A stretch of DNA of 64,000 nucleotides from Patescibacteria group bacterium. Its GTDB lineage: Bacteria; Patescibacteriota; Microgenomatia; Curtissbacterales; GWA2-41-24. The stretch is from the NCBI GenBank assembly GCA_038063735.1, contig JBBTUN010000002.1, forward strand, positions 13,321 through 77,320. Direction: 5' to 3'. Under the pieces are notes generated by a model. The model was not told the DNA's origin and made no database searches. It saw only the letters and a program-made list of their open reading frames with translations. Both the position numbers and the translations under genes were made by a program. Positions 1,677 to 51,507 of the stretch are shown piece after piece; the stretch's first letter is position 1, and the number at the start of each line of letters is the position of its first letter.

Positions 1677-2547
1677 ATTAAAGGTTAAAGTTGGGGGCCC
1701 ATCCTTCGCTTCATCCTACGCTAAGGCTACGGATGACAAGAAAGCTATGGAGGGCAAGGAAATTTTAAAAGGTGTTGACCTGGAGGTTGGTGCCGGTGAA
1801 GTCCATGTGGTGATGGGGCCGAATGGGAGTGGAAAAAGTACGCTGGCGCAGGTGATAGCAGGGAACCCAATGTACAAAGTTCACAGTGGACAGATCACGG
1901 TTGACGGTAAAAACATAATTAAATTAAGTCCGGATAAAAGGGCGAAGCTGGGGATATTTTTGGGTTTCCAGAACCCGATTGAAATTCCGGGCGTTAGTGT
2001 TTTCAACGTAATTAGGAAGGCAAGTCAATCTCAAGTGGGTCCTGCCAGTAGTTTCCCTCCCGTCAGTGCTCAATTGAAAACAAAATCCGTGCGTAATGGT
2101 AAATCGAGTGTCAATCTGCGCGCTGCCGGAAGCCCTTCCACTACTGTCACCCAGTTTCGTCAAGATCTTTTAAAATATGCATCTTCTTTAAAATTATCAT
2201 CCGATCATCTTTCCAGATCTTTTAATGAAGGGTTTTCCGGTGGGGAAAAAAAGAGAAATGAGATTTTGCAGATGCTGGCACTGTCGCCAAAACTTGTAAT
2301 TTTGGATGAGATAGATAGTGGGTTGGATGTGGATGGATTGAAGCTGGTAGCCGGTGCTATCAAGAAATTCTCAATTCTCAATTCTCAATCCTCAATTATC
2401 CTTATTACCCACTATGCCCGCATCCTTAAATACATCAAGGCAGATTTTGTGCATGTGATGACTGATGGGAAAATTGTTAAATCCGGAAAGCAAAAATTGG
2501 CAACGGAAATTGAGGAGAAAGGATACCAGTTCGTTAATAGTTTATAG
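1657..2547 (+). CDS. sufC: Fe-S cluster assembly ATPase SufC, with two in-frame repeat insertions
   Basis: Walker A GPNGSGKST, ABC signature FSGGEKKR, Walker B LVILDEIDSGLD and C-terminal IILITHYARIL...GYQF, typical of SufC. Start chosen at MNLKINKLKV (SufC-like MLxIxNLHV); the ORF-track start at 1588 looks like an upstream extension. Extra segments at about 1692-1739 and 2030-2160 are absent from canonical SufC. Confidence 0.85.
   Translation: MNLKINKLKVKVGGPSFASSYAKATDDKKAMEGKEILKGVDLEVGAGEVHVVMGPNGSGKSTLAQVIAGNPMYKVHSGQITVDGKNIIKLSPDKRAKLGIFLGFQNPIEIPGVSVFNVIRKASQSQVGPASSFPPVSAQLKTKSVRNGKSSVNLRAAGSPSTTVTQFRQDLLKYASSLKLSSDHLSRSFNEGFSGGEKKRNEILQMLALSPKLVILDEIDSGLDVDGLKLVAGAIKKFSILNSQSSIILITHYARILKYIKADFVHVMTDGKIVKSGKQKLATEIEEKGYQFVNSL
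1692..1739 (+). repeat. family-B in-frame element (encodes GGPSFASSYAKATDDKK) in sufC
   Basis: gggggcccatccttcgcttcatcctacgctaaggctacggatgacaag; related to 7667-7702 and 55275-55350. Confidence 0.6.
2113..2155 (+). repeat. family-A in-frame element (encodes NLRAAGSPSTTVTQ) in sufC
   Basis: aatctgcgcgctgccggaagcccttccactactgtcacccag; about 80% identical to 50494-50540. Confidence 0.7.
2375..2400 (+). repeat. CTCAATT/CTCAATC tandem tract in sufC (encodes FSILNSQSSII)
   Basis: ctcaattctcaattctcaatcctcaatt. Confidence 0.6.
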
Positions 2548-4487: not shown

Positions 4488-4907
4488 ATGGAAACTGAAA
4501 GACCAAGAAACGTAATAAATTTTAAAGAATCAGTTAGAATTCTCAAAAAGCGGCAGGTGAGAAAGAGGGTTAACTTTGATTTACATAGGACGGTGAAATT
4601 ACATGCGTTTTTAAGTGATCGATTGGGTGATGAACATGAACTGACTAGCACCTTCATGCCCCCAAAGTCACTAAAACCAAGATTTGATTTGCTAGTCACG
4701 AGACGAGGAATAGATCAGATTGCCAGGATGTTACTTGATGAACAAGATGCCAATGTCAGGAAATCTGTTGGAGAATCTTTGATCGGGTTGGATTATGCAT
4801 TTACCGGGGTCAGTGGATATCCGTGGGGTAATGTTGCATACGAAGCATTTATTGCAGAACACTATGAAGATATTAGTAGGCAAGAGGCTTTAGATATTGT
4901 TCAATGA
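4488..4907 (+). CDS. hypothetical protein (cassette 1 between sufB and sufD)
   Basis: 139-aa ORF starting 1 nt after the sufB stop; followed by repeat copy R1. Confidence 0.45.
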   Translation: METERPRNVINFKESVRILKKRQVRKRVNFDLHRTVKLHAFLSDRLGDEHELTSTFMPPKSLKPRFDLLVTRRGIDQIARMLLDEQDANVRKSVGESLIGLDYAFTGVSGYPWGNVAYEAFIAEHYEDISRQEALDIVQ

Positions 4908-4950
4908 ACCATATTATTTTACAAAAAGACGAAAAGAGGTTAAATGGGGG
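4903..4950 (+). repeat. direct repeat R1 (copy of the sufD 5' leader)
   Basis: caATGAACCATATTATTTTACAAAAAGACGAAAAGAGGTTaaatggggg; 40/40 identical to R3 over the core. Confidence 0.8.
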
Positions 4951-5363
4951 CTGAAGATTTGATCGCTCAAGCGGAGAGAGCTGCATACCATGAAGACTAC
5001 CGGAATTTCCGAGTTCGATTAGAGACTGAAACGTTTTTGGCAGTACATGGTTTATTAAAAGTCGATAAAATTTTAGAAGAAACTGATCTTCATAACAGAC
5101 AATTGTCTTTAGGAGAAGGACTTTTTACTATGCTGGCAGACAGGTTTAGAGACGCAATGCGCAAGGCGGAAGATCATGGTACGGAAACAATTGAAGTCGA
5201 TTTAAGCTACAGGGAATTGAATACGTTAGGAGATGTAGCAGTAGTCAAGGGAAATGCTGCTTTGGCACCTTATGTCTTAAACTTGAATGGGGCGTTTGTT
5301 GCTGCGGGTGGGCGCGATAATCAAAGACTGAGAGCGTATTTTGAAATGCTTACAGGGATATGA
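4944..5363 (+). CDS. hypothetical protein (cassette 2)
   Basis: 139-aa ORF; its start ATGGGGG lies immediately after repeat copy R1, which carries the RBS AAGAGG. Confidence 0.45.
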   Translation: MGAEDLIAQAERAAYHEDYRNFRVRLETETFLAVHGLLKVDKILEETDLHNRQLSLGEGLFTMLADRFRDAMRKAEDHGTETIEVDLSYRELNTLGDVAVVKGNAALAPYVLNLNGAFVAAGGRDNQRLRAYFEMLTGI

Positions 5364-5390: not shown

Positions 5391-5429
5391 TTAAATTCGG
5401 GTCTTTGGCTCGGAGGGGAGGATGGTAGG

Positions 5430-5990
5430 ATGAACGAGATTTTAGCGACCGCTGACTTTACAGACGAGGTTTTTGATGATGTTTATTTAAATTATTTATC
5501 GGATGCGGCGATTGCACATTTGGTGTTTGGTGTCGAAAGCGTATTAAGGTTAAATCAAGAAGCAGAGCCTAGGCTTGATTTTAACTTAAAACCAGCTCAT
5601 CCACTATTTGAGTATGACATTATGAGTAAATCTAGGCCGGATTGGCAGGATTGGAAACAAGTGCTTTTGCATCACGAAAGTTATAGTCAAATTTCCAAGT
5701 CGATGGAAGAAACCATTGGTTCTCCACCATATGCTTTTGGTTATTTAAAAGGAAAATTGCTTTTGTTAACTGCGAAAGATGCGGATACGATTAAATATGG
5801 CACGAGTTTATTTTGGGCATACTTAGATGGTGATTGTGAAGTTTCGGAAGACGGGGAATATATAAAAAGACTGATGCAACTATCGAGGGGAGTTTCTCCG
5901 GAATTTCATTATAGGCATGATATTCCTGTAGAAGACAAACAAGGTGGGGGAAAGTGGAGATCATTACTAAGAAGGATCAAAGGTAGCTAA
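5430..5990 (+). CDS. hypothetical protein (cassette 3)
   Basis: 186-aa ORF, RBS ggaggggaggatggtaggATG; followed by repeat copy R3. Confidence 0.45.
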   Translation: MNEILATADFTDEVFDDVYLNYLSDAAIAHLVFGVESVLRLNQEAEPRLDFNLKPAHPLFEYDIMSKSRPDWQDWKQVLLHHESYSQISKSMEETIGSPPYAFGYLKGKLLLLTAKDADTIKYGTSLFWAYLDGDCEVSEDGEYIKRLMQLSRGVSPEFHYRHDIPVEDKQGGGKWRSLLRRIKGS

Positions 5991-6614: not shown

Positions 6615-6979
6615 GCGGGAAAGGATATTTTAGATTTGAAAAACTTGATGTTTGGATTGATGCAAGACAGTTTGTATCTTTAATATACAAAGTCACAGAA
6701 GATTTCCCTGCAAAGGAGAGATTCGGATTAATCGATCAGATTAGAAGAGCAGCAGTTTCGATTGCTTTAAACATTGCGGAAGGTTCGACTAAAAATTCTG
6801 ACCCGGATTTTAGAAGGTTCTTGAGAATGTCTCAAGGTTCTGTGAATGAAGTTGTTACAGCACTTTATATTGCTTTGGATCAAAAGTTTATTAAAGAGGG
6901 AAAATTTGATGAACTATATGAATTTACATTAAGGTTAAATGCAAGGCTAAATGCACTAATAAAAAGCATTAGTCATTAG
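6611..6979 (+). CDS. four-helix-bundle protein (23S rRNA intervening-sequence protein family)
   Basis: FEKLDVW..A..F...IYK.T..FP..E.FGL..QIRRAA.SI..NIAEG is the signature of this family. Confidence 0.7.
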   Translation: MSGKGYFRFEKLDVWIDARQFVSLIYKVTEDFPAKERFGLIDQIRRAAVSIALNIAEGSTKNSDPDFRRFLRMSQGSVNEVVTALYIALDQKFIKEGKFDELYEFTLRLNARLNALIKSISH

Positions 6980-19897: not shown

Positions 19898-20236
19898 ATG
19901 TTTTTCTTAACTCCAATTTTGGCGGGAATAATTTTGGTTGGTACTCTTGGTGCTGGTACTTATGTAACCGAGCAAGCAAGGGAAGTTGTCTCTAAATATA
20001 ATTTATCGCAAATTAGTCATGTTTTGGAAATTTATTATGTGGAGGATAGCAAATATCCGCAGAGTTTGGAAGAGGTTGTTAGAAGAGGAGAGGTTAAGAA
20101 TTTAAACGTGGCGGATTATTCGTATGAGCTTTTTGGGGATACAAAAGATGTGAAGGTTTGTGAGATTAAAATAAATATTTGTTGGACTTCTTTAGTGGGT
20201 CTGGATGGATTCGAACCATCGACGTCCACCTTATAA
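19898..20236 (+). CDS. type IV pilin/pseudopilin-like protein (3' extent uncertain)
   Basis: N-terminal hydrophobic helix ILAGIILVGTLGAGTYV followed by ...YPQSLEEV, typical of pilin-like proteins. The ORF runs antisense into the tRNA at 20195-20267, so the real stop may be earlier. Confidence 0.35.
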   Translation: MFFLTPILAGIILVGTLGAGTYVTEQAREVVSKYNLSQISHVLEIYYVEDSKYPQSLEEVVRRGEVKNLNVADYSYELFGDTKDVKVCEIKINICWTSLVGLDGFEPSTSTL

Positions 20237-20267
20237 GAGTGGCGCTCTAACCGCTGAGCTACAGACC
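20195..20267 (-). tRNA. tRNA with anticodon UAU (reads AUA; tRNA-Ile)
   Basis: Reverse complement GGGTCTG-TA-GCTC-AGCGGTTA-GAGC-G-CCACT-CTTATAA-GGTGG-ACGTC-GATGG-TTCGAAT-CCATC-CAGACCC-A folds as a cloverleaf with 7/4/5/5-bp stems and a T-loop TTCGAAT; anticodon positions 34-36 are TAT. Confidence 0.7.
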
Positions 20268-20303
20268 CAATAATTTACTGGCAAGTATACCAAAATTTAT
20301 ATT

Positions 20304-23040: not shown

Positions 23041-25295
<2,255 letters not shown>

Positions 25296-26918
25296 TTATT
25301 TGTTTTTGCGGGTCCTGCCACGCTTTTCCCCCGTCCGACGTCCTCGCTTTGAGTTTGAATTTGGTAATGATGTTTTCTTTTCGCTTGCTGCGGGCGCTCG
25401 ACGGGGTCCCCCAAGCGTGTCACCCGCGTCTGGGTTTGTTGAGGTAGTTTTTCCTGTCACTAATTTTTCCAGTTGGCCTTTAACAAAATCGTCTATTTCT
25501 TTTTTATCTTCCAAATAGTCTTTTAGCTTTTTGTTTGCTTCAAACAGTGCGAGAATTTTTTCTTCCTGTTTTGCCACATCTTCTATCGGGACGCTGTCGA
25601 GATGCCCATTGGTGACTGCCCACAGTATGACTACCTGAGCAGTAACGTCCATGGGTTTTAATTGCGGTTGTTTAAGAACCTCGACGATTCTCCGGCCACG
25701 TTCGAGGCGAATTCTGGTACTTTCATCCAGGTCCGACCCAAATTGGGCAAATGCTGCCAGAGATCTGTATTGAGATAAATCCAGCCTTAGGGTTCCGGCA
25801 ACTTGTTTCATCATTTTTGTTTGAGCTGCTCCACCGACACGCGAAACTGATATTCCAGGATTTACAGCGGGGCGGATGCCAGAATTAAAAAGATCTGCTT
25901 CCAGAAAGATTTGACCATCCGTTATTGAAATAACATTGGTTGGGATGTAAGCAGACACATCTCCGGCCTGGGTTTCGATAATGGGTAGGGCAGTCAGCGA
26001 TCCACCGCCGTATTTTTCGTCCATACGGGCTGCCCGTTCCAGGAGCCTCGAGTGAAGATAAAAAATATCTCCGGGGTAAGCTTCACGACCGGAAGGTCTT
26101 TTCAAAAGAAGAGAAAGTTGACGGTATGCCCAGGCGTGTTTGGATAAGTCGTCATAAATTACCAGTGCGTCCTTTCCCTGGTCCATAAAATATTCGCCCA
26201 TTGCACAACCTGTGTATGGAGCAACATACTGCATAGAAGCGGAGTCTGCGGCAGAGGCAGCGACTATTATCGTGTGATCGAGTGCTTTGTGTTTTTCGAG
26301 TGTTGCAACAACTTGGGCGATTTTACTGGTTTTCTGGCCAATTGCTACATAGATACAAATGACACCTTTACCTTTTTGGTTAATTATGGTGTCGAGTGTA
26401 ATTGCTGTTTTTCCGAGTCCCCTGTCTCCGATAATTAGCTCCCTTTGTCCGCGTCCAATTGGTATCATGGAATCAATTGCTTTAAGGCCCGTCTGTAGGG
26501 GAGTGTTAACAGATTTTCTGTAGATTACACCAGAGGCTATTTTTTCAACAGGATAAGCTTTTTTGGCCTTTATCGCACCTTTGTTGTCGATCGGATTTCC
26601 TAGTGCATTGATCACCCGACCAATTAATTCTTCGCCAACGGGGACTTCCAGAATCCTGCCGGTTGTTTGGCACTCGTCACCTTCTTTAAGTTGTGTCCAG
26701 TCTCCGAAGATAATCACTCCGACCGAATCTTCTTCGAGATTTAAGGCCAGGCCGGTGATGTCGTGTGGGAATTTAATAAGTTCGGATGCGGCTACATCGG
26801 AGAGACCGGCAACTCTGGCAACACCGTCACCGATTTCCAAAATTGTCCCGACATTTTTCGGAGCTTGTGAGAATTTTGACTTTTCTATTTGTTTTTCTAT
26901 TTCTTCTACAATACTCAT
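25296..26918 (-). CDS. atpA: ATP synthase F1 alpha subunit with repeat-encoded C-terminal extension
   Basis: [10 protein letters not shown]-loop and alpha-subunit motifs; about 35 extra C-terminal residues encoded by the family-A element at 25390-25430. Confidence 0.95.
25390..25430 (+). repeat. family-A-like element forming the atpA C-terminal extension (opposite orientation to the gene)
   Basis: gcgggcgctcgacggggtcccccaagcgtgtcacccgcgtc aligns with gcgcgctgtcggtagcccttccaatcgtgccacccgcgaa. Confidence 0.45.
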
Positions 26919-34613: not shown

Positions 34614-34898
34614 ATGGAAAGAAAAGAAAATTGTCAAAGACAAAGCGGTATGGATTGCCGAGGTTGCGATGTGGCGGTTGATATTGCAAAAAATGTATTA
34701 TCTAACCCTGGCGAATCTGTAGTTAAGTAGATTTTAGAAGTTGCGGCTGAGAGTTGTCCTGTAGACACAAAATTTCTATTGCACGGAGATTTTGCCGAAT
34801 TGATGGAAGTAGAGAAAAAAGTAATACAATTAAGAACGATAAATGGCGAACCTAGTACAAATACAGAAACATTTGCGTCTGTTGCAGCTGGACTTTAA
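34614..34898 (+). pseudogene. ferredoxin-like gene interrupted by an in-frame TAG at 34738-34740
   Basis: Translation MERKENCQRQSGMDCRGCDVAVDIAKNVLSNPGESVVK*ILEVAAESCPVDTKF...: both halves align with the intact ferredoxin at 9408-9638 (C.G..C ... AAESCP); RBS aggtgaaacattATG. Confidence 0.3.
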
Positions 34899-35298
34899 AG
34901 TAATTGACTTGGATCAGGAAGCTTTTACGGTTGCTGACGTGGTTGATGCTGGGATAAAGGTTGATGAAGTTGTAAAGACGCTGATCGTGCGTGTGGGCGA
35001 TGGATCTTTTATCGCACTCGCTCTGCGAGGGAATGATCGGGTGGATTTTAAAAAAGTGCGGAAGCTGTTTGGATCAAAAGCCGAGCTTGCAAAGCCGGAG
35101 GACGTTTTGAAGGTTGTGGGCGTGCCAATTGGTGCTGTTTGCCCAATTTTGGTTGGAGTGCCAGTGTATGTGGATAAGAATGTTATGGATTTGCAAAACG
35201 TGCATATGGGTTCGGGGGATTTGATGCATGGATTAGAAATGAAGCTTAAAGATTTATTAAAGGCGGTTGGAGAATATCAGGTAGAAGAATTAGCATAA
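34843..35298 (+). CDS. YbaK/ProX-family aminoacyl-tRNA deacylase
   Basis: 151 aa; ...KTLIVRVGDGSFIALALRGNDRVDFKKV...VGVPIGAVCPI resembles YbaK/EbsC deacylase domains. Confidence 0.6.
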   Translation: MANLVQIQKHLRLLQLDFKVIDLDQEAFTVADVVDAGIKVDEVVKTLIVRVGDGSFIALALRGNDRVDFKKVRKLFGSKAELAKPEDVLKVVGVPIGAVCPILVGVPVYVDKNVMDLQNVHMGSGDLMHGLEMKLKDLLKAVGEYQVEELA

Positions 35299-38588: not shown

Positions 38589-39605
38589 TTGGGCATGAGT
38601 TCTCCAAAAATTCTTCTGTTAATTGATGGGAATAATCTTTTCCATCGTGCGTATCATGCCTTGCCTGCATTAACTGACAAAACGGGTGAGAATGCCAACG
38701 CCGTTTTTGGATTTTCTAATATGCTGATTAGGGCAGTAAAGGAGGTCGAACCTACTTATATCGCCTGTGCATTTGATACCAAGGCGCCAACATTCCGCCA
38801 TGTAGAATTTGAGGCTTATAAAGCGCAAAGAAAAGCCCCGCCGGAGGATTTATATCCACAGCTGCCAAAAGTTAAGGCAGTATTGGATGCTTTTGGTGTT
38901 AAATATTTTGAAAAAGCGGGTTATGAAGCAGACGACATACTCGCGACTGTAGCGTCGCGAGCAGTTAATAGTTCACAGTTAATAGTTCACGGTAAGAAAA
39001 ATGAGAAAACTGTGAACCCCTCTGGAATCGGGGTAAACCGTGAACCGTCTACTGTTGACCAAGTGGTGATTCTTTCCGGCGACCGTGACCTACTTCAACT
39101 CGTTGATGGAAATATCAAGGTTCAGGCGCCCGGGTGGAACCTGAGCTCAACCACATTATATGGTTCAAAAGAGGTGGAAGAAAAGTTTGGAATCACACCC
39201 CTTCAAATGGTCGATTATAAGGCGATGATCGGAGACCCGAGTGATAACATTCCGGGGATTGCCGGCATTGGACCAAAAACGGCCTCGGCATTACTTCAAA
39301 AATACAAAACACTTGAGGGAATTTATGACAATATTGATGAAATTTCGGGAACAACAAAAGATAAGTTGGAAAAGGATAAAGAAATTGCCCTGGCTGCTAA
39401 AAAACTTGTTAAGCTGGATTGTAATGTAGATATTAGCTTTAAGCTGTCAGAGCTTAGATTTAATCCGGATTGGGAAAAAGTAATAAAAGAATTTGAAGGC
39501 TTGGGGTTTAAAAGTATTGTTGCTAAATTGCAAGGTAAAGCAGTGGGCAATGCAAAATCTGTACATGTTGCTGATAATAATAAAGACCAGCTTGAGTTAA
39601 TTTAA
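38589..39605 (+). CDS. 5'-3' exonuclease (DNA polymerase I N-terminal/FEN-like domain) with in-frame repeat insertion
   Basis: ILLLIDGNNLFHRAYHA..., acidic catalytic residues and the H3TH region GIPGIAGIGPKTA; about 30 extra residues encoded by the family-D element at 38962-39056. Confidence 0.8.
   Translation: MGMSSPKILLLIDGNNLFHRAYHALPALTDKTGENANAVFGFSNMLIRAVKEVEPTYIACAFDTKAPTFRHVEFEAYKAQRKAPPEDLYPQLPKVKAVLDAFGVKYFEKAGYEADDILATVASRAVNSSQLIVHGKKNEKTVNPSGIGVNREPSTVDQVVILSGDRDLLQLVDGNIKVQAPGWNLSSTTLYGSKEVEEKFGITPLQMVDYKAMIGDPSDNIPGIAGIGPKTASALLQKYKTLEGIYDNIDEISGTTKDKLEKDKEIALAAKKLVKLDCNVDISFKLSELRFNPDWEKVIKEFEGLGFKSIVAKLQGKAVGNAKSVHVADNNKDQLELI
38962..39056 (+). repeat. family-D nested-hairpin element in-frame in the 5'-3' exonuclease gene
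   Basis: GTTCACAGTTaatagttcacggtaagaaaaatgagaaAACTGTGAACccctctggaatcggggtaaaccgtgaaccgtc: 10-bp and 8-bp inverted repeats. Confidence 0.65.
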
Positions 39606-40286
39606 ATGATGGAAGGTCAAACAAAGAGAGAAACCGAAAAACAGCGCATTAACGCCATAATTTTTGATTTGGATGGTTTGCTTATCGACTCCGAACCTGT
39701 CTGGAATGATGCGTATGTGAAATTCATTTCTGTTAAAGGTCTTCCTGATGAGCCTGCTGTTTCTAGTCACTTTAGAGGAATGGGTATTAAAGAGATTGTT
39801 GGAATTTGGAAAAAAGAATATGGTTTGGAGGGAGAAATAGATCAGCTTGCAGCCGAATATAGGTCGTGTTTGTATGGGCTGATTTTAGAACCCGGAAGAC
39901 TTAAATTAATGGATGGTGCTACAGTTCTCCTTGAAAAATTGAAAGGGAAATATGTTCTTGGTGTGGCGACAAGTGGGCATCGTGATGAGATGGCGAGGAA
40001 GATTTTGGGATTGCTAGGTGTAGAAAATTATTTTGATCAAATAATTTCGGGGGATGATGTCACTCATGGCAAACCAGCTCCGGATGTCTATTTAGAAAGT
40101 GCGAGAAAGATTGCGCAGAGACCTATTAATTGTTTAGCTCTTGAGGATTCTGTAAACGGAGTGTTGTCAGGAAAGGCTTCAGGTATGAAAGTGATTGGGG
40201 TTAACGCAGATGAGAAACTAAGACAACAATTACAAGAAGCTGGGGCTGATGAAGTTTATAGTACCTTGGGGGATGTCCGGCTATGA
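39606..40286 (+). CDS. HAD-family hydrolase (beta-phosphoglucomutase-like)
   Basis: Motif I IIFDLDGLLIDSE, ...VATSG... and C-terminal ..EDS.NGV..G..AGM..I. Confidence 0.7.
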   Translation: MMEGQTKRETEKQRINAIIFDLDGLLIDSEPVWNDAYVKFISVKGLPDEPAVSSHFRGMGIKEIVGIWKKEYGLEGEIDQLAAEYRSCLYGLILEPGRLKLMDGATVLLEKLKGKYVLGVATSGHRDEMARKILGLLGVENYFDQIISGDDVTHGKPAPDVYLESARKIAQRPINCLALEDSVNGVLSGKASGMKVIGVNADEKLRQQLQEAGADEVYSTLGDVRL

Positions 40287-41482
40287 AAGTAGCTCTAGTC
40301 CATGATTATTTAAACGAGTTTGGGGGTGCGGAGAGGGTGCTACTAGCATTGTCGGAGATTTATCCGGACGCGCCGATTTATACGGCTTTTTACCAGGAGG
40401 GATCTTCGGCTTACAAAAGGTTTAAAGGAAAAAAAATAATTACTTCCTGGGCACAGAATGTGCCATTTTTTGCAAGTAAATTACATAGTCCATTACGGTT
40501 TTTGGCCCCGTTTATTTGGAACAGTTTTGTCCACCAGCTGGCGGATTACGATGTGGTGATTGGTTCGAGTAGCTGGTACGTAACGAAGGGGTTCAAACGT
40601 ATCAAAAGTATCAAAGGTAACAAAAGTTTCGTTGAGATTTGTTATTGCCATACTCCGCCAAGGTATTTGTATGGATATCCTACTGCTTCAAATTTACAAA
40701 AGCATTTTTTGGTTAGGGTATATGCACTTTTGGTTAACCATTTTATGCGAGTTTATGATTTTGAGGCGGCGCAACGCGTTGACTGGTTTATTGCCAATTC
40801 CAAAGAGGTTGCAGGTAGGGTTAAGAAGTTTTATCGAAGAGAATCCACGGTGATTTATCCACCGGTGGATGTAAAAAAGTTCACAGTTAATAGTTCACAG
40901 TTAATAGTTAATAAAAATACTATGAACCATGAACCGTCAACTAATTACTTTCTGGTTGTTTCCCGGCTTGTGGCGGCGAAAAATGTAGACATTGCAGTGG
41001 AAGTTTGTACAAATTTGAAATTGCCTTTGAAAATAGTTGGAACGGGTAAGGAGATGCAAGCTCTTAAGGAGCTAGCAAGTTCACAGTCCTCAGTGAACGG
41101 TGAACAGTCAACAATTGAGTTTCTCGGTGATGTTAGTGATAGTGAACTGGTTGAGCTTTATCAAAATTGTCGTTCCTTAATTTTTTCCGGGAGCCAGGAA
41201 GATTTTGGGATTGTGCCGGTTGAGGCAATGGCCGCGGGTAAGCCTGTCATTGCTTTAGCGGAGGGCGGAATCAAGGAGACTGTAATTGATGGTAAAACCG
41301 GGCTTTGGGTAGAGGATTTGGCGCCGGGCGCATTTGTCATTGCCATTAATAAATTTTTGGAAATGGAGAAAAAGGGGCAGTGGGATAGCGAATTTATCCG
41401 CAAACACGCCCAAAAATTCAGCAAGGAACGTTTTAAGCGCGAAATTAAGAAATTTGTGGAAAGTAAGCACAAAAAAGCTTGA
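40283..41482 (+). CDS. glycosyltransferase family 4 (GT-B)
   Basis: C-terminal EDFGIVPVEAMAAGKPVIA (E..7E-like) with preceding Rossmann-like segments; start overlaps the HAD stop. Confidence 0.8.
   Translation: MKVALVHDYLNEFGGAERVLLALSEIYPDAPIYTAFYQEGSSAYKRFKGKKIITSWAQNVPFFASKLHSPLRFLAPFIWNSFVHQLADYDVVIGSSSWYVTKGFKRIKSIKGNKSFVEICYCHTPPRYLYGYPTASNLQKHFLVRVYALLVNHFMRVYDFEAAQRVDWFIANSKEVAGRVKKFYRRESTVIYPPVDVKKFTVNSSQLIVNKNTMNHEPSTNYFLVVSRLVAAKNVDIAVEVCTNLKLPLKIVGTGKEMQALKELASSQSSVNGEQSTIEFLGDVSDSELVELYQNCRSLIFSGSQEDFGIVPVEAMAAGKPVIALAEGGIKETVIDGKTGLWVEDLAPGAFVIAINKFLEMEKKGQWDSEFIRKHAQKFSKERFKREIKKFVESKHKKA
40596..40628 (+). repeat. GTATCAAA tandem units in-frame in the GT4 gene (encodes KRIKSIKGNK)
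   Basis: acgtatcaaaagtatcaaaggtaacaaaag; same unit as 62765-62805. Confidence 0.55.
40879..40945 (+). repeat. family-D element in-frame in the GT4 gene
   Basis: ttcacagttaatagttcacagttaatagttaataaaaatactatgaaccatgaaccgtcaactaat. Confidence 0.65.
41078..41112 (+). repeat. family-D short hairpin in-frame in the GT4 gene
   Basis: aGTTCACagtcctcaGTGAACggtgaacagtcaac. Confidence 0.5.
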
Positions 41483-43038: not shown

Positions 43039-43950
43039 ATGCCTGAATTACCCGAAGTAACGGTTGTAGTTAATAGTTTGAATAATGCAATAAAGGGCTT
43101 AACTTTTGATTCAGTTGAATACGACTGGAAGCCGAAGTTTTATTGGAATGGATTTTCGATAAAAGATTTAAAAGGGGCAAAAGTAAAGGATGTCCGTAGG
43201 TGGGGGAAAGTGATTGTAATTGATCTAGAGACAAGCAAAAAGCAAAAAGCAAAAAGTAGAGGTATGTCGATAGTTATCCACCTTAAATTGACCGGGCAGC
43301 TGGTCTATCAGGACAAAAGGATAAGGGTGGGCGGTGGACATCCTATTCCGCCTCTTAATAAACCTGTTCCAAATGGTACTACCCGGGCTACTTTTGCTTT
43401 TACAAATGGAGGACATTTGTATTTTAACGACATGCGTAAGTTTGGATGGGTAAAGATAGTTGCAAGCGATGAGCGATCTATAAAGGACGCTATCGGAAAG
43501 ATTGAGCTGGGGCCAGACCCAATGACGATGAAATTTGAAGAATTTCGCCAAAGGCTAAAGGCCAAAGGCCAAAGGCGGATAAAACAATTATTAATGGATC
43601 AGGCTTTTGTTGCCGGAGTTGGCAATATTTACAGTGATGAAGCTTTGTGGCGTGCTAAGGTGCACCCAAAAAGGTCTGTTGTGAGTTTAACTGATGCTGA
43701 AATAAAGGCAATATTTAAAGGTTTGATTGACAGTTTTAATTTGGCTATAGAAAAAGGCGGATCTAGCGCTAATTCTTTTGTAGATGGTCGAGGCGAAAAA
43801 GGACTCTATCTTAGTTTTGCAAATGCTTATCATATGACCGGTACGCCATGTAAGCGCTGCAAAACACCAATTGTGCGCGAAAAAATGGATGGCAGGAGTG
43901 CACACTACTGTCCAAATTGTCAAAAGTTGCAACAGCAACTGTTGGTATAG
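43039..43950 (+). CDS. fpg: formamidopyrimidine-DNA glycosylase (Fpg/Nei family)
   Basis: N-terminal MPELPEV catalytic Pro2/Glu3, H2TH region, and C-terminal zinc finger C.RC......GRS...CP.CQ. Confidence 0.8.
   Translation: MPELPEVTVVVNSLNNAIKGLTFDSVEYDWKPKFYWNGFSIKDLKGAKVKDVRRWGKVIVIDLETSKKQKAKSRGMSIVIHLKLTGQLVYQDKRIRVGGGHPIPPLNKPVPNGTTRATFAFTNGGHLYFNDMRKFGWVKIVASDERSIKDAIGKIELGPDPMTMKFEEFRQRLKAKGQRRIKQLLMDQAFVAGVGNIYSDEALWRAKVHPKRSVVSLTDAEIKAIFKGLIDSFNLAIEKGGSSANSFVDGRGEKGLYLSFANAYHMTGTPCKRCKTPIVREKMDGRSAHYCPNCQKLQQQLLV
43231..43258 (+). repeat. AAGCAAAA tandem units in-frame in fpg (encodes KKQKAKS)
   Basis: aaagcaaaaagcaaaaagcaaaaagtag; compare 49921-49944. Confidence 0.55.
43555..43575 (+). 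repeat. AAGGCC tandem in fpg
   Basis: aaggccaaaggccaaaggcgg. Confidence 0.45.
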
Positions 43951-44007: not shown

Positions 44008-45240
44008 ATGCCGTTTTTGCCAAAAACCTACTTAGCACTTTTTAAAAATCGTGATTTTTTTATTCTGTCAGCAATAATTTTTTTTGGTCAAGCAGCGTCT
44101 GCTTTTTTAGTGCTGACGCTTATTATTTCTGTATTTTTAAAAACCGGTAGCAATATCGGAGTATCCGGAGTAGTTCTTTCCTTTACAATCCCTTCATTTT
44201 TTTTGATGGCATTTTCTGGGCTGCTTGCCGATATTTTTGATCGCAGAAAAACGATAATTTTTGCCAATGTGTTTATTACACTGGTTGTTCTTATGATTAT
44301 TTACACTCAAAAGGCTGTTTATGCTTCTATCCCCTTGTCCTTTTTATATTTTGCAGGGAACTCTTTTTTTATACCGGCGTCCAGTGCTGCGACTGCACAA
44401 CTTGTCAAAAAGAATGAGTTACTGGTTGCCAATTCTATTTTTATATTTAATTTGGCTGGGGGTGTTCTTTTGGGTCTTTTTGCGGCGGCTGTCGTTTATT
44501 TTTTCTTTGGGGCATATGTGACACTTGTGATTTGTGAAGTGTTTTTGCTGGTCGCGGCAGTACTTTCATTCTTTTTACCAAAACTTGTACCTCTTGAAAA
44601 AAGTGAAGATTCTTTTCGAAAGCGCGTTAGTAATATTTGGGACGGTTTTGTCTATATGTTTAAATCCCGAACAGTCTGGTTCTTTTTTGTAGCTTTTGCG
44701 GCAATACAGGGTGTAATTGTTTTTGGAATAACCTTGGCGCCTGGCTTTTTTACAGAAATAGTCGGAATTTCTATTGAAAAAGCTTTAGTTTTCGTTTTCC
44801 CGCTTATCACCGTGGGGGTCCTGTTTGGCATTGGGGTTATTAATAAACCTAAAATTAACGAACTGTCCCTCTTGTCGCTTGGAAATTTGGTGATGGGTGC
44901 AAGCCTCTTTTTTTATGGTATTTCTTTAAAAATTCAACTGTTTTCCAGATTGGCACTGGCTTTTTTGGCTGTGCCATTTTTAATTGGTTTAGGGTTTGGG
45001 ACTATCCTTATTATGATTGCCTCCCGGACTGTTCTTCAAAAAAAAATACCGCACACTCACCAGGGGACAGTTTTTGGGGCAAATATAATACTGGCATCGC
45101 TATTCGCCGCATTTGCATCTCCACTTGCAGTAATGTTTGAGGTTATTTTTGGCTATTTGGGCACTTTGGTGTTGGGGGGAACTGCTTTAGGGTTTTCTGG
45201 AGCGCTTTTTATTTATTTGGGTAAAAAGTGGAAATATTAA
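44008..45240 (+). CDS. MFS transporter
   Basis: 410 aa, about 12 hydrophobic segments; GLLADIFDRRK after TM2 resembles the MFS signature. Confidence 0.6.
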   Translation: MPFLPKTYLALFKNRDFFILSAIIFFGQAASAFLVLTLIISVFLKTGSNIGVSGVVLSFTIPSFFLMAFSGLLADIFDRRKTIIFANVFITLVVLMIIYTQKAVYASIPLSFLYFAGNSFFIPASSAATAQLVKKNELLVANSIFIFNLAGGVLLGLFAAAVVYFFFGAYVTLVICEVFLLVAAVLSFFLPKLVPLEKSEDSFRKRVSNIWDGFVYMFKSRTVWFFFVAFAAIQGVIVFGITLAPGFFTEIVGISIEKALVFVFPLITVGVLFGIGVINKPKINELSLLSLGNLVMGASLFFYGISLKIQLFSRLALAFLAVPFLIGLGFGTILIMIASRTVLQKKIPHTHQGTVFGANIILASLFAAFASPLAVMFEVIFGYLGTLVLGGTALGFSGALFIYLGKKWKY

Positions 45241-45304: not shown

Positions 45305-46468
45305 ATGCGCATAGATTCTCTTAAGCTTACGAACTACCGGAATTTTACTGCTCAGAAGATATCGTTTGACGGAAAACTCACAGCGATTGTGGGTAAAAAC
45401 GGTGCCGGTAAAAGCAATATTTTAGAGGCTGTCGCTATGCTATCCGGAATTAGGCCGATAAGGGTAGAAACGGATTTGGATTTAGTCCGTTTTGGGGCAG
45501 AAAGTGCCAAAGTTGAAGGGGAAATTTCTTCTGAGGGTGACACCAAAAGTTTAATAGTTAACCTACAAGTTATAGATAGGCGAGTTGGTAAGTCTTTTTA
45601 TATAGGTGCATTTAAAAAGAGGCTCGTGGATTTTGTGGAAGTTTTTTCTATAGTTGTTTTCGAGCCAAGTGATTTAGATTTGGTTTCCGGTTCTCCGTCT
45701 TTGCGTCGTCGTCACCTGGACAGGTTTTTATCATCCATTGACGGTAAATACTGGAGAAGTGTCAGCGCTTATGGAAAGATTGTGACGAGAAGAAATAAGA
45801 TTTTGGGAAGAATTGGAGAAGGCAGGGCGAAACCTTTGGAGCTTGGTTTTTGGGACTCACGCCTCTTGGAGCACGGAAAGTATGTTTCGAAAGTGCGTGA
45901 GGAGTTTTTTGAGTTTTTGAATTTTGTCGAAGCGGTTAATGACTCGGGTCCTGTCAGTTCTTTCCTTCCCACTCCTTCGATCGTCTCAGGACAAGCAGTG
46001 CAGCGCGTTTATCCTGAGCGAAGTCGAAGGGCTGTCGGGAACCCTTCTAGAACTGCCACCCGCGAAAATATTAGCGGATTTTTCTGGAACTTAAAGCAGA
46101 GTGTTTTAACTGAGGAGAAGCTCAAGAATAATAGAGAGCGCGATATTGCAGCAGGCATTACGCTTTCTGGCCCGCATCGCGATGATTTCAGATTTGTTCA
46201 CAAAAAACGCGATTTGGAGTTTTTCGGTTCTCGCGGGCAGCAGCGTATGGCAGTTTTGGCACTAAAGCTTGCAGAGCTTGAGTACCACCGTGTCAAGCGC
46301 GGGCAACGGCCGGTACTAGCGCTGGATGATATTTTTTCGGAATTGGATTGGGAGCACAGGAATACTGTTTTGTCGGTAATATCAAATCAACAAACAATTA
46401 TTACGGCAGCGGAAAAAGAATCCATCCCGAGGGAAATTTTCAAAAAGGCAAAGATTGTGGAACTGTAA
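45305..46468 (+). CDS. recF: DNA replication/repair protein RecF, with in-frame repeat insertion
   Basis: MRIDSLKLTNYRNF......F.....AIVGKNGAGKSNILEA and C-terminal ...LDDIFSELD; about 40 extra residues at 45960-46080 encoded by the family-A element. Confidence 0.75.
   Translation: MRIDSLKLTNYRNFTAQKISFDGKLTAIVGKNGAGKSNILEAVAMLSGIRPIRVETDLDLVRFGAESAKVEGEISSEGDTKSLIVNLQVIDRRVGKSFYIGAFKKRLVDFVEVFSIVVFEPSDLDLVSGSPSLRRRHLDRFLSSIDGKYWRSVSAYGKIVTRRNKILGRIGEGRAKPLELGFWDSRLLEHGKYVSKVREEFFEFLNFVEAVNDSGPVSSFLPTPSIVSGQAVQRVYPERSRRAVGNPSRTATRENISGFFWNLKQSVLTEEKLKNNRERDIAAGITLSGPHRDDFRFVHKKRDLEFFGSRGQQRMAVLALKLAELEYHRVKRGQRPVLALDDIFSELDWEHRNTVLSVISNQQTIITAAEKESIPREIFKKAKIVEL
46029..46068 (+). repeat. family-A in-frame element (encodes RRAVGNPSRTATRE) in recF
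   Basis: gggctgtcgggaacccttctagaactgccacccgcgaaaa. Confidence 0.65.
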
Positions 46469-48111: not shown

Positions 48112-49179
48112 ATGTACTCCCCGAAATATCGAGTTTCAAATTTAATTTTAAAATATATCGGTAAGATAGAAGCCTCAAAGGAAGTTATCGAAAACGCACC
48201 ACTAGTGCCTGCGTACGAAGCTAAATTTCGACAGGAAGCGATAATCAGGACTGTCCATCACGGAACACATATAGAAGGCAATCCATTGGATAGCGGTGAG
48301 GTGGCTGCAGTACTCGAGGGTGGTAATGTTCCGGCTCGTGATCGTGATGTCCAGGAAATTTTAAATTATCGGGAAGTACTAAAGTACATTGATAAAACTC
48401 AAAACTCGAAACTCAAAATTCCAAATTTTAGCGAGAAAGATATTCTTACAATTCACAAATTAACGGTCGATAAAGTTTTGTCTGCTGCGACCGCAGGTAC
48501 ATATCGTCTAAATCAGGTTGTTGTTAAAAATTCTAAAACTGGAGAGATTAGTTTTAAACCTCCCGAGGCGAACAAAGTTAAAAAACTGGTAGGGGATTTT
48601 TTGGATTGGTTAAACGGAAAAGAAGCCAGCGATGTGCATCCGGTTCTAAAGGCAGGAATTACCCATTATGTTTTGGCTTTTATACATCCGTTTGTGGACG
48701 GAAACGGAAGGGCGTCACGTGCTTTTGCGACTTTGGTTTTGTTTCGTGGGGGTTATGATATTAAAAAGTTCTTTTCGATAGAAGAATATTTTGATAGGGA
48801 CTCTAAAAGATATTACGAAACTTTGCAGAGTGTTTCAAACCAAAAGGTGAATAGTCTATCTGAGCGGGATTTAACAGGTTGGCTTGAATATTTTTGTGAG
48901 GGAGTGGCGGAAGAGCTGGAGAGAGTCAAACAAAGAGTGCAAAAATTGTCACTGGATACAAAATTGAAAGGGAGAACGGGGCAGATAGTGCTTAACGAGA
49001 GGCAGGTAAAGCTTGTTGAGTATATCGAGGCTAATGGGTCTATTAATAATAAACAGTGGAGGGTTATTTTGCGTGATTTTTCCGATGACACAATTTTGCG
49101 GGATTTGAAGGATTTGCAGAAGAAAAAACTGGTAAAAAAGAAGGGGTCTACAAAGGGGGCCGTTTACGTACTGAGATGA
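48112..49179 (+). CDS. Fic-family protein (AMPylation fold) with C-terminal winged-helix domain
   Basis: Fic motif HPFVDGNGRASR (HPF.[DE]GNGR) and a C-terminal basic wHTH-like tail. Confidence 0.75.
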   Translation: MYSPKYRVSNLILKYIGKIEASKEVIENAPLVPAYEAKFRQEAIIRTVHHGTHIEGNPLDSGEVAAVLEGGNVPARDRDVQEILNYREVLKYIDKTQNSKLKIPNFSEKDILTIHKLTVDKVLSAATAGTYRLNQVVVKNSKTGEISFKPPEANKVKKLVGDFLDWLNGKEASDVHPVLKAGITHYVLAFIHPFVDGNGRASRAFATLVLFRGGYDIKKFFSIEEYFDRDSKRYYETLQSVSNQKVNSLSERDLTGWLEYFCEGVAEELERVKQRVQKLSLDTKLKGRTGQIVLNERQVKLVEYIEANGSINNKQWRVILRDFSDDTILRDLKDLQKKKLVKKKGSTKGAVYVLR

Positions 49180-49580
49180 AGAGTGATAGTGAGAGAGAGT
49201 TAGAGAGTAAAAGTGTCAGAACTAAGGGTTATCATAAGTTGATTTTGTGGCAGAAGGCAAGGGAATTTTTAAAGTTGGTGTACAAGCATTCAGAAAAGTT
49301 TCCTAAAAGTGAAGAATATGGTCTAAAGAGTCAGCTAAGGAGAGCGACAGTTTCAGTACTTTTAAACATAGTAGAGGGATATCGGAGAAATTCTACAAAA
49401 GAATTTATCAGGTTTTTGAATATTTCTGGTGCCTCTTTAAGCGAGGTAGAAGCTTGTATTGAGATAGCCATCGACCTTGGGTATTTTACTCAAACGGAAT
49501 ATAAAATTCTTGAAGAAAGGAGAGTGGAAATAGAAGTTATTTTATTCTCTTTTGAGAAATCTCTAAGAAAAAAACTATAA
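49176..49580 (+). CDS. four-helix-bundle protein (23S rRNA intervening-sequence protein family)
   Basis: ...GYHKLILWQKAREF...YKHSEKFPKSEEYGLKSQLRRATVSVLLNIVEGY, same family as 6611-6979. Confidence 0.7.
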   Translation: MKSDSERELESKSVRTKGYHKLILWQKAREFLKLVYKHSEKFPKSEEYGLKSQLRRATVSVLLNIVEGYRRNSTKEFIRFLNISGASLSEVEACIEIAIDLGYFTQTEYKILEERRVEIEVILFSFEKSLRKKL

Positions 49581-49593: not shown

Positions 49594-51507
49594 ATGCTCT
49601 TTGCAACTTTATCGAAATATTACGAAAAGTTGGAGTCAACGAGTAAACGTTTGGAGCTTGTTGATATTTTATCCAAACTTTTTGGAGAATCGGACAGTGC
49701 GGAAATTGGCAAGATTTGTTATTTGTTGCAGGGAAGAGTTGCGCCGTTTTATATGCCTGTTGAAATGGGAATGGCCGAATCTATGGTCGCGCAGGCAATT
49801 GCCAAGGCGTATGGCCCCACTTCGCCAAGGCTTCGAGGGGTAAACATTACAAAAGATGAAGTTATTAAGCTTTATCGTAAGTTGGGGAATATGGGGCTAG
49901 CGGCACAAGAGTTAAGCAATAAGCAAAAAGCAAAAAGTAATAAGTTGTCAGTAAGCGATGTATTTGAGGAGCTTTTAAAGATTGCAAATACTGGAGGAGA
50001 AGGGTCGGTAGAGCAAAAGATAACAACCCTGGCAAACATTTTGAAAGATTTGGATTCTGTTTCCGTTAAACATGTGGTAAATATTCCGTTGGGAACGTTG
50101 AGGTTGGGAATTGGTGACCCGACGGTTATGGACGCACTTTCCATTGCCAAAACGGGAGACAAAAAACTGCGGCCGGTAATCGAAGATGCTTATAACAAAA
50201 CCAGCGATCTTGGATACGTTGCCGAAGAATTTTTTAAGTATGGAGAAAAGGGTTTGGCGACTATTAAATTAATCGTTGGAAAACCGGTTAGGCCGGCTTT
50301 GGCCGAGCGGATGCCAAATGCAGACGAAGTTGTTAAGCGAATGGGCGACAAATTTGCGGCAGAACCCAAGTTTGACGGATTTAGGGTGCAAATTCATTTG
50401 GACCGGCGCGGTATTGCGGGTCCTGTCACGATTTTCCCTCCCGCCAGTGCTCGATCAGGAAAGAAAACAGATCGTGATCAGTCGGAAAATGTTGATCTGC
50501 GCGCTGTCGGTAGCCCTTCCAATCGTGCCACCCGCGAAGTCGAGATTTTTTCCCGAAACCTGGAAGATATGACACATTCTTTTCCGGATTTAGCGCAAGG
50601 GGTTTTAAAAGAAGTCAAGGCAAAATCTGTGATTATGGAGGGGGAGGCAATTGCTTATAACCCGCAGACGGAGGAATTTTTACCGTTTCAGGAAACAACA
50701 AAGAGAAGGCGCAAATATAAGATCGAAGAAACTGCAAAAGCACTGCCACTTGTCTGTTTTGCCTTTGATATTTTGTATTTGGACGGGCAGGATATAACGG
50801 GAAAGCCGGAGGTTGAGCGCAGAAAACTGTTGGAAAAAATTGTTTCGAAAGACCTGCCTGCCGGCAGGCAGGGTAACCAAACGATTAGAATTGCCGAACA
50901 AAGGGTAATTTCTACTGCCAAAGAAATCCAGGAATTTTTTAATGAGGCAATTTCGGATGGGCTCGAAGGTTTGATGATTAAAAAACTGGATGCGCCATAT
51001 AAAGCAGGCGGGCGGGGTTTCCATTGGATTAAGTTTAAGCGGGCTTCCAGCGGAGATTTGGCAGATACGGTGGATTGTGTTTTGTTGGGGATTTATAGTG
51101 GCAAAGGCAAAAGGACGGAATTTGGGGATGGTGGGCTTTTGGTTGGGATTTATAACGATAAAGATGATGTTTTTGAGACGATTTCGCGGGTTGGGACGGG
51201 TTTGACGGATGAAGAGTTTAGAAAAGTCCATGAAATTGGCAAAAAGTTAAGGCTTGGTCATAAACCGGCAAGAGTAAGGTCTAAAATTGAACCGAGTTAT
51301 TGGGTAGAGCCGAAAGAAGTTTTGGAAATTTACGCCGACGAAATTACCAAATCTCCGATTCATACGGCTGGAGAAGAAGATGGAATTGGGTATGCGTTAA
51401 GATTTCCGAGATTAGTTAAATTTAGAGAGGCAGACAAAAGGGCTGAAGATGCAACTACGGTTGAGGAGATTAAAAAATTGTATAAAAATCAGTATGGCAA
51501 GAAGTAG
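49594..51507 (+). CDS. ATP-dependent DNA ligase, with in-frame repeat insertion
   Basis: Adenylation motif I AEPKFDGFRVQIH (K.DG.R), ...EGLMIKK.... and ...GIY..KG; about 40 extra residues at 50440-50560 encoded by the family-A element. Confidence 0.8.
   Translation: MLFATLSKYYEKLESTSKRLELVDILSKLFGESDSAEIGKICYLLQGRVAPFYMPVEMGMAESMVAQAIAKAYGPTSPRLRGVNITKDEVIKLYRKLGNMGLAAQELSNKQKAKSNKLSVSDVFEELLKIANTGGEGSVEQKITTLANILKDLDSVSVKHVVNIPLGTLRLGIGDPTVMDALSIAKTGDKKLRPVIEDAYNKTSDLGYVAEEFFKYGEKGLATIKLIVGKPVRPALAERMPNADEVVKRMGDKFAAEPKFDGFRVQIHLDRRGIAGPVTIFPPASARSGKKTDRDQSENVDLRAVGSPSNRATREVEIFSRNLEDMTHSFPDLAQGVLKEVKAKSVIMEGEAIAYNPQTEEFLPFQETTKRRRKYKIEETAKALPLVCFAFDILYLDGQDITGKPEVERRKLLEKIVSKDLPAGRQGNQTIRIAEQRVISTAKEIQEFFNEAISDGLEGLMIKKLDAPYKAGGRGFHWIKFKRASSGDLADTVDCVLLGIYSGKGKRTEFGDGGLLVGIYNDKDDVFETISRVGTGLTDEEFRKVHEIGKKLRLGHKPARVRSKIEPSYWVEPKEVLEIYADEITKSPIHTAGEEDGIGYALRFPRLVKFREADKRAEDATTVEEIKKLYKNQYGKK
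49921..49944 (+). repeat. AAGCAAAA tandem units in-frame in the ligase gene (encodes NKQKAKSNK)
   Basis: aagcaaaaagcaaaaagtaataag. Confidence 0.5.
50494..50540 (+). repeat. family-A in-frame element (encodes DLRAVGSPSNRATRE) in the ligase gene
   Basis: gatctgcgcgctgtcggtagcccttccaatcgtgccacccgcgaagt. Confidence 0.7.

Follow-up and report, generated by a model that had tools for sequence, protein, structure and literature searches.

Family D inserts in the exonuclease and glycosyltransferase genes

We analysed a stretch of 64,000 nucleotides (nt) from a Patescibacteria group bacterium of the Curtissbacterales (assembly GCA_038063735.1, contig JBBTUN010000002.1, positions 13,321 to 77,320), hereafter called the window, in which a family of short inverted repeats, family D, lies in frame within two open reading frames (ORFs). 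One encodes a stand-alone 5'-3' exonuclease of the DNA polymerase I (Pol I) type and the other a GT4 glycosyltransferase; coordinates are given in Table 1. Homologues of the exonuclease possess the domains PF02739 and PF01367, are named 5'-3' exonuclease and come from Candidatus Curtissbacteria or Patescibacteria, and the matches of this ORF in the PDB are the N-terminal domains of Pol I. The insert sits between the YEADD helix and the ILSGDRD strand. From YEADD to LSGDRD there are 56 residues in the window protein and 29 in orthologues with an empty site, so the insert adds 27 residues, close to the approximately 30 that an earlier interpretation of the DNA letters (the sequence-only reading) had placed between blocks conserved in the FEN-like domain. 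The corresponding position in a solved Pol I structure (6vde) is a loop of 3 residues, compared with 30 residues in the window exonuclease.

Each cassette consists of two inverted tandem arrays of 7-nt units with an A-rich spacer between them, which in family D takes the form (AGTTCAC/AGTTAAT)n, spacer, (GTGAACC)n. The exonuclease copy contains a 14-nt direct repeat, CAGTTAATAGTTCA, in two tandem copies (38962-38989), a perfect 10-bp inverted repeat, GTTCACAGTT/AACTGTGAAC (38971-80 and 39008-17), a 9-bp pair, GTTCACGGT/ACCGTGAAC, and a CCCC..GGGG mini-stem at 39017-39033. Inverted repeats of 10 and 8 bp and the mini-stem had been described in the sequence-only reading, which took the elements for a family of nested hairpins. 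A dispersed, in-frame family of inverted repeats was indeed found, but its unit is a 7-nt tandem repeat rather than a hairpin. The last right-arm unit overlaps the native V-D-Q codons, and an A-rich, lysine-coding spacer like that of this copy is present in nearly all family D copies. Comparison with the orthologous locus L069 (comparison loci are denoted by L numbers) revealed that its exonuclease copy lacks 21 nt of the right arm, the window copy being exactly 21 nt longer, and this nested sequence occurs only once in the window.

As had been noted, the GT4 gene carries two related copies. At the second site, the closest relatives, L071 and L075, carry no insert. The sequence AGTTCACAGTTAATAGTT occurs exactly three times in the window compared with 0.02 expected, and GTTCACRGT eight times compared with 0.41 expected. 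The exonuclease and GT4 inserts are thus related in-frame inverted repeats whose similarity goes far beyond chance.

Table 1. Host genes, family D copies and other heptamer arrays, in window coordinates
Feature	Position	Strand	Composition or evidence
Heptamer array in the sufC ORF	2366..2396	+	(AATTCTC)
Heptamer hairpin belonging to a related family and spanning the sufC stop codon	2533..2600	+	(GTTNATA)4 then (CGATTAA)5; DNA folding z-score -1.87
Plain tandem array in atpG	24695..24730	-	Sense-strand (TCAACCA)5; of the same class but another family, lacking an inverted partner
Stand-alone Pol I-type 5'-3' exonuclease (FEN-like) gene, family D host	38589..39605	+	Pfam domains of homologues; PDB matches
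Exonuclease family D left arm, four heptamers	38963..38990	+	AGTTAAT AGTTCAC AGTTAAT AGTTCAC; Tandem Repeats Finder period 14, 100% matches
Exonuclease A-rich spacer	38991..39009	+	GGTAAGAAAAATGAGAAAA; codes GKKNEK
Exonuclease family D right arm	39010..39059	+	CTGTGAAC, nested 21-nt insert, CGTGAAC CGTCTAC TGTTGAC
Nested 21-nt (3 x 7) insert with CCCC..GGGG mini-stem	39018..39038	+	Codes VNPSGIG; comparison with L069
GT4 glycosyltransferase gene, host of two copies	40283..41482	+	Homologues with PF00534, PF13439, PF13692
Family D copy, GT4 site 1	40878..40949	+	(AGTTCAC AGTTAAT)2 AGTTAAT, spacer AAAAATACT, ATGAACC ATGAACC GTCAACT AATTACT
Short family D-like copy, GT4 site 2	41078..41112	+	AGTTCAC AGTCCTC AGTGAAC GGTGAAC AGTCAAC
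Further members of the heptamer class	6967, 8198, 9656, 22217, 28159, 36269, 43233, 43550, 48394, 49913		

A lineage-wide class of heptamer arrays

A period scan of the window detected 15 arrays of period 7, whereas dinucleotide-preserving shuffles gave 0.05 (an approximately 300-fold excess). The harmonic period 14 gave 11 arrays compared with 0.05 expected, and every other period gave three or fewer. Tandem Repeats Finder likewise reported many period-7 arrays with differing units. Approximately 10 of 16 window arrays lie inside ORFs, and the other six are at gene ends or intergenic, in regions that make up about 11% of the window. The density per 100 kb was 23.4 in the window, 23.8 in the close Curtissbacteria loci (760 kb), 7.8 in loci of other bacteria of the candidate phyla radiation (CPR) and 1.8 in non-CPR loci, the CPR and non-CPR comparison loci having been fetched with one identical query. 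For 37 of 171 arrays, or about a fifth, a reverse-complement partner was found within 90 nt, compared with 5 in the control. As such arrays occur throughout the window and the lineage, family D is one organised member of a lineage-wide heptamer class.

Several tracts previously linked to family D have a different relationship to it. The 3' end of sufC had been regarded as a partial, reversed copy, but the tract there is an entire hairpin, lies in the same orientation and belongs to a related heptamer family. The HQPSTN peptide of atpG, which had been thought to share the family D tail, is encoded by a separate plain heptamer array, which makes a loop about 5 residues longer than in solved gamma subunits. 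A third claim concerned GEPSTN at 34847-34870, which lies within a 39-residue ORF overlapping the start of the ORF 34843..35298 and contains no heptamer array; we took this non-repetitive tract to be a chance match. A repeat match at 1876-1911, inside the sufC ORF, was judged by eye to be native coding sequence.

Hot spots and turnover among orthologues

For the comparison with orthologues, we collected 5 close loci from reference genomes, 80 loci from metagenomes and the contigs of two close homologues, which together sample approximately 2 Mb around one gene neighbourhood and provided 70 distinct exonuclease alleles and 50 GT4 sequences. Across the exonuclease alleles, the YEADD-LSGDRD stretch is 27-70 residues long. 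The site is empty (27-30 residues) in outgroup CPR and several Curtissbacteria lineages, and the insert is also absent from solved homologues. Some alleles carry pure heptamer arrays, such as (AATGTCA)4, which codes for KCQMSNVKCQI, or arrays of AATTTCA or AAACTCC units, and others carry family D, with the peptide VNSSQLIVH-KKxKK-TVNREPSTV. At least six other families occupy this site, most of them also inverted arrays with a lysine-rich centre, including LRxTTKxK..ALDVSRSSL, LQTTDYRLQKKKKAVDSRQLTV (family E, (AGACTAC)n/(AGTAGAC)n), AISHL.., VIASEAKQS..IASSSTPRNDK and GPV..LRAVGSP..ATR. Both GT4 sites may be empty or hold plain arrays, family D or other families, drawn from the same set as at the exonuclease site, and the C-terminal tail of the exonuclease is a third hot spot of family D.

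In a neighbour-joining tree built from the conserved exonuclease regions, all families were polyphyletic and the outgroups were empty. The nearest neighbours of the window exonuclease are L071, in which the site is empty, and L075, which holds another family. The sequence-only reading had treated the inserts as elements that orthologues in distant taxa would lack; in fact, orthologues showing 60-76% protein identity carry homologous D segments at the same sites. The D segments are therefore not private recent insertions but occupy recurrent hot spots that are shared across the clade and show fast turnover.

This turnover can be followed in closely related loci. L003 and L088 share an upstream flank of 6589 nt at 100% identity and a downstream flank of 5168 nt at 99.96%, and yet their GT4 site 1 cassettes differ, one being a 94-nt family E cassette and the other a 148-nt GPV cassette (L003:10196-10291 and L088:6589-6738); the swap takes in six diverged native residues (VELNRL versus VDIEKF). 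L099 and L107 are 90% identical, and their exonuclease sites hold an E hairpin in one and (TGTCAAG)4 in the other. Between L128 and L138, identity jumps from 88.5% to 98.2% exactly at the exonuclease site, which marks a recombination breakpoint. Within arrays, no indel of 7, 14 or 21 nt appeared in a limited sample of close locus pairs (approximately 100 kb at 90% identity or more).

Two further observations concern these genes and families. L112 (1999-2114) and L142, which are 99% identical, differ in the part of the GT4 gene that encodes the C-terminal domain, where 114 nt have been either deleted or inserted. In addition, the family of about 115 nt that is translated as GPV..RF.PASARS...LRAVGSP..ATR is present in the window at 2036-2152, 45945-46061 and 50417-50533, with partial copies at 25306-25330 and 44548-44573. 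Its hosts there are sufC, a recF-like gene and the DNA ligase gene, and in other lineages it fills the exonuclease and GT4 hot spots.

A common source of the family D copies

An nhmmer search with the L069 copy detected approximately 23 distinct family D copies, located in two parts of the exonuclease (loop and C-terminal tail) and at GT4 site 1; apart from one weak partial match, all are in sense orientation. The internal order AGTTCAY AGTCGAC AGTTCAY AGAAAGAAAAAAACC GTGAACC GTGAACC is shared by L096, L098, L125 and L137, and it spans all three of these sites. Both window copies are marked by the variant AGTTAAT. Because the internal order is shared at three sites, the D copies have a common source; independent slippage cannot explain this sharing.

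Between lineages, the D element shows 82-90% identity, compared with 42-69% third-codon identity in the flanks. In a test of concerted evolution, the similarity of copies from the same genome, from the same site and from neither was 0.76, 0.77 and 0.75, respectively, with no difference among the three. The flanks of shared cassettes showed 2-6 points more third-position identity, that is, weak hitch-hiking, and thus long-tract allelic transfer does not explain the conservation of the element. Taken together, the high element identity, the equal similarity everywhere and the weak hitch-hiking indicate that the consensus of the family does not decay in place but is renewed or maintained.

A search of a database of 5.8 billion proteins with concatenated D peptides returned two weak matches. 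Family D patterns were not found in IMG/VR, although the same pattern does detect Curtissbacteria loci; there is thus no evidence for a phage vector.

Translation, protein structure and folding

All of the 70 exonuclease alleles and all of the 50 GT4 sequences are open and in frame. No D copy contains a third tandem GTGAACC, a unit that would create an in-frame TGA, and a third AGTAGAC in family E would give TAG. The third unit is altered in every copy, as a stop codon would otherwise arise, and this accounts for the recurring EP(S/K)T tail. The EPST peptide noted in the sequence-only reading therefore does recur, but its recurrence is partly forced by the need to avoid TGA. The A-rich spacer always lies on the sense strand and gives rise to lysine-rich peptides.

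The copies had been expected to lie in exposed loops of both proteins. In AlphaFold2 models, residues 128-153 of the exonuclease insert have a predicted local distance difference test (pLDDT) score of less than 50 and are placed as coil linking helix 114-126 to strand 158-162, and GT4 site 1, with a pLDDT of about 45-57, is likewise a low-confidence loop. GT4 site 2 differs from both in being a confidently modelled loop, connecting helix 258-269 to strand 278-282.

The window copies had DNA folding z-scores of -1.2 to -1.9, and the L069 copy one of about 0. The RNAalifold consensus of 14 copies had an energy of -0.64 kcal/mol, with double changes in 2 of 13 pairs. When D units pair, each shows a conserved A.C mismatch (every seventh base); in family E, each unit has two. 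Homogenisation in L095 has left arms of (AGTTCAC)4 and (CGACAAC)4, between which there is no pairing. A scan of the window against Rfam returned three tRNAs only and no family match for the element. The inverted layout is real, but it is not kept as a stable fold.

Junctions, nested repeats and mobility genes

The terminal units of the arms repeatedly overlap native codons that resemble the unit. Family D starts within the K-F codons AAG TTC at GT4 site 1, ends at V-D/N-Q (GTTGACC or GTGAACC) in the exonuclease loop and ends at D-N-Q (GATAACC) in the exonuclease tail. Family E ends at V-V (GTAGTC) in the exonuclease and at V-D (GTAGAC) at GT4 site 2, and it starts after P-V-D (CCAGTAGA) at GT4 site 1. 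In L090 and L111, (GAAGTTC)2 arrays have grown de novo from native K-F codons. At the junctions examined, where heptamer-like native codons blur the boundaries, we saw neither a target-site duplication nor any terminal repeat distinct from the arrays.

A perfect 20-nt palindrome, CCTGCCTGCCGGCAGGCAGG, lies in frame (LPAGRQG) in the ORF of an ATP-dependent DNA ligase (50853-50872). The fetched loci, nearly all of them from Curtissbacteria, contain it in 13 distinct contexts, and IMG/VR has 35 stretches with it, including a 29.5-kb contig in which it is present at least 6 times. In L117 (10858-10935), the left arm of family D harbours a nested 21-nt variant. This palindrome is a candidate for a very small dispersed repeat in its own right.

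No transposase, Y1/RAYT (REP-associated tyrosine transposase, where REP stands for repetitive extragenic palindrome) or reverse transcriptase domain was detected in the Pfam-scanned ORFs of the window, which comprise most of its ORFs and are housekeeping genes. No transposase or reverse transcriptase was found within 10 kb on either side in the syntenic loci L069 and L071.

Other features of the window

A 64-nt repeat with (AAGCAAA)n is common to an Fpg-like ORF (43195-43258) and the DNA ligase ORF (49876-49939) and is translated as SxKQKAKS in both. The window contains two genes for 23S_rRNA_IVP four-helix-bundle proteins (6611-6979 and 49176-49580), the first with a CATTAGT heptamer array at its 3' end and the second with a weak bAvd-like match. 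In the region 3095-6979, a complete SufBD ORF precedes three unknown ORFs (4488..4907, 4944..5363 and 5430..5990), each bounded by a 48-nt repeat (4901, 5357 and 5991); next come an ORF with only positions 91-232 of SUFBD_core and then a 23S-rRNA-intervening-sequence protein. A tRNA-Ile gene with the anticodon TAT lies at 20195-20268. Some resemblances of the repeats were dropped as numerology: CACAGT with an A-rich tract as the heptamer and nonamer of V(D)J recombination signals, TGTGA/TCACA as CRP sites, GAAC/GTTC as LexA boxes, and the periodic ACNGT core as a restriction site.

Origin of the cassettes

We read the cassettes as DNA-level repeats rather than as functional protein modules or structured RNAs. 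In the interpretation that we prefer, and for which we consider the case about evenly balanced, family D is one family of a Curtissbacteria-wide class of tiny cassettes (approximately 35-100 nt) that are selfish or neutral and are copied and tolerated in permissive loops, probably without any function for the host. New copies would arise when an existing cassette is copied elsewhere by templated repair or template switching, and not by classical cut-and-paste. Copying would be seeded by microhomology, at short matches with native codons resembling the unit (AAGTTC, GTTGACC and GATAACC for D; GTAGAC and GTAGTC for E), and the arrays may then change as 7-nt units are gained, lost and homogenised. 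Whole cassettes would be replaced fast, partly via recombination with breakpoints at the cassette. Selection would act only as a filter, the survivors being those in disordered surface loops, with the spacer in sense orientation (lysine-rich) and without in-frame stops, so that the surviving peptides would be open, hydrophilic and disordered. Such filtering would explain the repeated use of the same three or four loops throughout the clade. That related lineages have different repeat families in the same loops suggests a spreading route for very small DNA elements.

Several points weigh against this interpretation. First, copying was not observed, and no donor-recipient pair was identified; the L003/L088 swap, with its six native residues, fits the import of a foreign allele better than intragenomic copying. 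Second, the seed pattern was defined post hoc from a handful of junctions and could equally reflect element ends that were reshaped to encode native residues. Third, a consensus that is conserved across lineages could mean that something recognises the sequence, and the identity values of such short repetitive sequences are inflated by alignment. In addition, sampling a single gene neighbourhood limits inference about copy number and the spectrum of sites, and the missing transposase in 64 kb says little for a genome of approximately 1 Mb.

A stronger proposal is that a dedicated 7-nt-phased copy-and-replace process operates in Curtissbacteria, and less in other CPR bacteria, writing translated cassettes into unit-like native codons and swapping cassettes in otherwise clonal genomes. 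We consider this process unlikely. It could be driven by an enzyme, for example a polymerase, primase or recombinase with a 7-nt step.

Among the alternatives, the one that survives best, though we still regard it as doubtful and only slightly less so than the dedicated process, is that the cassettes are classical non-autonomous mobile elements, such as MITEs (miniature inverted-repeat transposable elements), REP doublets forming hairpins (REPINs) or Rickettsia palindromic elements (RPEs), moved in trans by a transposase or RAYT-like enzyme encoded elsewhere, with the hot spots reflecting the mere survival of insertions in permissive loops. A conserved master copy would account for a consensus that is conserved across lineages and equally similar at all sites, and the shared internal order of dispersed copies, their polyphyletic presence and absence, the nested insertions and the replacement of cassettes in otherwise identical backgrounds all agree with mobility. 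However, neither a separate terminal inverted repeat nor a target-site duplication was seen at the junctions examined, arm length differs between copies by whole heptamers, and the majority of arrays are plain and partnerless. Nor was a transposase or Y1 domain found in the scanned window ORFs or the syntenic loci, or family D in IMG/VR.

A purely local origin appears improbable. Under this hypothesis, 7-nt replication slippage of native sequence produced the arrays and fold-back synthesis the inverted arms, and the family likeness is convergent, arising from similar native seeds under the same coding filter. Arrays grown from native codons do exist, as (GAAGTTC)2 from K-F illustrates; pure arrays of different units occupy the same exonuclease site across lineages; the arms of L095 homogenise independently; and the excess of heptamer simple sequence repeats in bacteria has been ascribed to polymerase slippage (PMC4692102). 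Local growth does not, however, account for the 18-nt exact sequence shared by the window exonuclease and GT4 copies (3 occurrences against 0.02 expected), or for the recurrence of the left arm, A-rich spacer and (GTGAACC)2 together, with shared variant order, at three unrelated sites. The GPV..LRAVG (approximately 115 nt) and LRxTT..SRSSL families also recur at unrelated sites.

Slightly more improbable still is a functional cis-element, in which the GTTCAC/GTGAAC arrays would be a selected binding site or a DNA or RNA structure, with a role in, for example, regulation, replication or recombination. The arrays are more conserved than neighbouring synonymous sites, the layout of arms and A-rich spacer is kept across lineages, and recombination breakpoints coincide with the sites. 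Against selection for such an element, the site in sister lineages is empty or occupied by unrelated families, folding is weak and lacks covariation, the L095 arms are not complementary, Rfam gave no match, and no regulatory logic is obvious inside coding loops of unrelated housekeeping enzymes. Finally, a contingency locus, in which 7-nt frameshifts switch host genes on and off as in the heptanucleotide-repeat gene neuO, is highly improbable: gain or loss of a single unit within an ORF would shift the frame, and heptanucleotide phase variation is known (neuO, HMW1A), but the hosts are housekeeping genes (atpG, sufC and the exonuclease), the arrays are short (3-5 units), close locus pairs show no indels of one to three units, and every exonuclease and GT4 sequence is in frame.

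Comparison with known repeat systems

Rickettsia palindromic elements are reportedly palindromes of approximately 100-150 bp that are inserted in frame in conserved genes, translated and read as selfish DNA. Their defining feature, the in-frame insertion of a palindrome at structurally permissive positions, is also found here, and the likeness extends to translation, conserved host genes, surface-compatible positions and a reduced genome with little intergenic space. RPEs are nevertheless set apart by length, build and host: they are not built of heptamers, whereas the Curtissbacteria (CPR) cassettes are heptamer-built, 35-97 nt in length (and as short as 21-35 nt), and here many families reuse the same loops with very fast replacement.

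Cyanobacteria are said to contain heptanucleotide short tandemly repeated repetitive (STRR) sequences, mainly intergenic, and small dispersed repeats (SDRs). An excess of tandem heptanucleotides, a defining feature of these repeats, is present here, with several unit families. Their tiny hairpin repeats (21-27 nt) nested in heptamer arrays may also have counterparts, the candidates being the 21-nt insert in the right arm of family D, which is single-copy in the window, and the 21-nt palindrome variant in the L117 left arm. However, STRR units are CCCCAGT, TTGGTCA and CAACAGT, while those found here are AGTTCAC, GTGAACC and others; STRRs are cyanobacterial and mainly intergenic, while approximately 10 of the 16 arrays in this CPR genome lie in ORFs and are translated; and the organised form that dominates here pairs inverted arms around an A-rich spacer.

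The in-ORF repeats of Borgs have units that are multiples of 3 nt and are direct, whereas here the unit is 7 nt and the arrays often occur in inverted pairs. The Borg amino-acid tandem repeats resemble the present arrays as fast-evolving in-ORF repeats that create disordered protein segments (PMC9879509). The GGGAATC/GGGGAYT heptamer repeats of Xanthomonas and Nostoc are over-represented and have been tentatively ascribed to polymerase slippage; they resemble the present arrays in their heptamer-specific excess, their usual number of about four units, occasional inverted pairs and differences in sequence and length at one locus between close relatives, but they are G-rich, quadruplex-forming and intergenic (PMC4692102), while the arrays described here are AT-rich, coding and without G-tracts. 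REP/REPIN-RAYT systems share short inverted doublets that form hairpins, non-autonomous replication and a consensus conserved lineage-wide (PMC3116915). REPINs, however, are extragenic and linked to a RAYT gene (PMC3116915), whereas the present cassettes lie in ORFs, have arms of tandem heptamers and are accompanied by no RAYT/Y1_Tnp domain in the scanned window ORFs. The cassettes thus belong to none of the compared families, from whose defining features they depart in units, host, location or length. Literature searches found no published description of such cassettes in CPR bacteria and no paper on Curtissbacteria repeats.

Significance

The tandem heptamer repeats of cyanobacteria have been unexplained since about 1990. 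The present data would show that such repeats also pervade a CPR lineage. Because the heptamers lie here in dense, comparable coding sequence, their junctions, turnover and selection can be read from orthologue alignments. The cassettes also explain some of the length variation and the odd low-complexity peptides of CPR proteins (VNSSQLIVH..NREPST, LPAGRQG and IASS..PRNDK), which affect annotation, orthology calls and structure prediction in these bacteria. In addition, the full replacement of cassettes between near-identical loci offers a way to study how recombination and repair proceed in uncultivable organisms. If the 7-nt copy-and-replace process is true, the cassettes would be among the smallest mobile units known, and they would be mechanistically one phenomenon with the unexplained STRR and SDR repeats of cyanobacteria.

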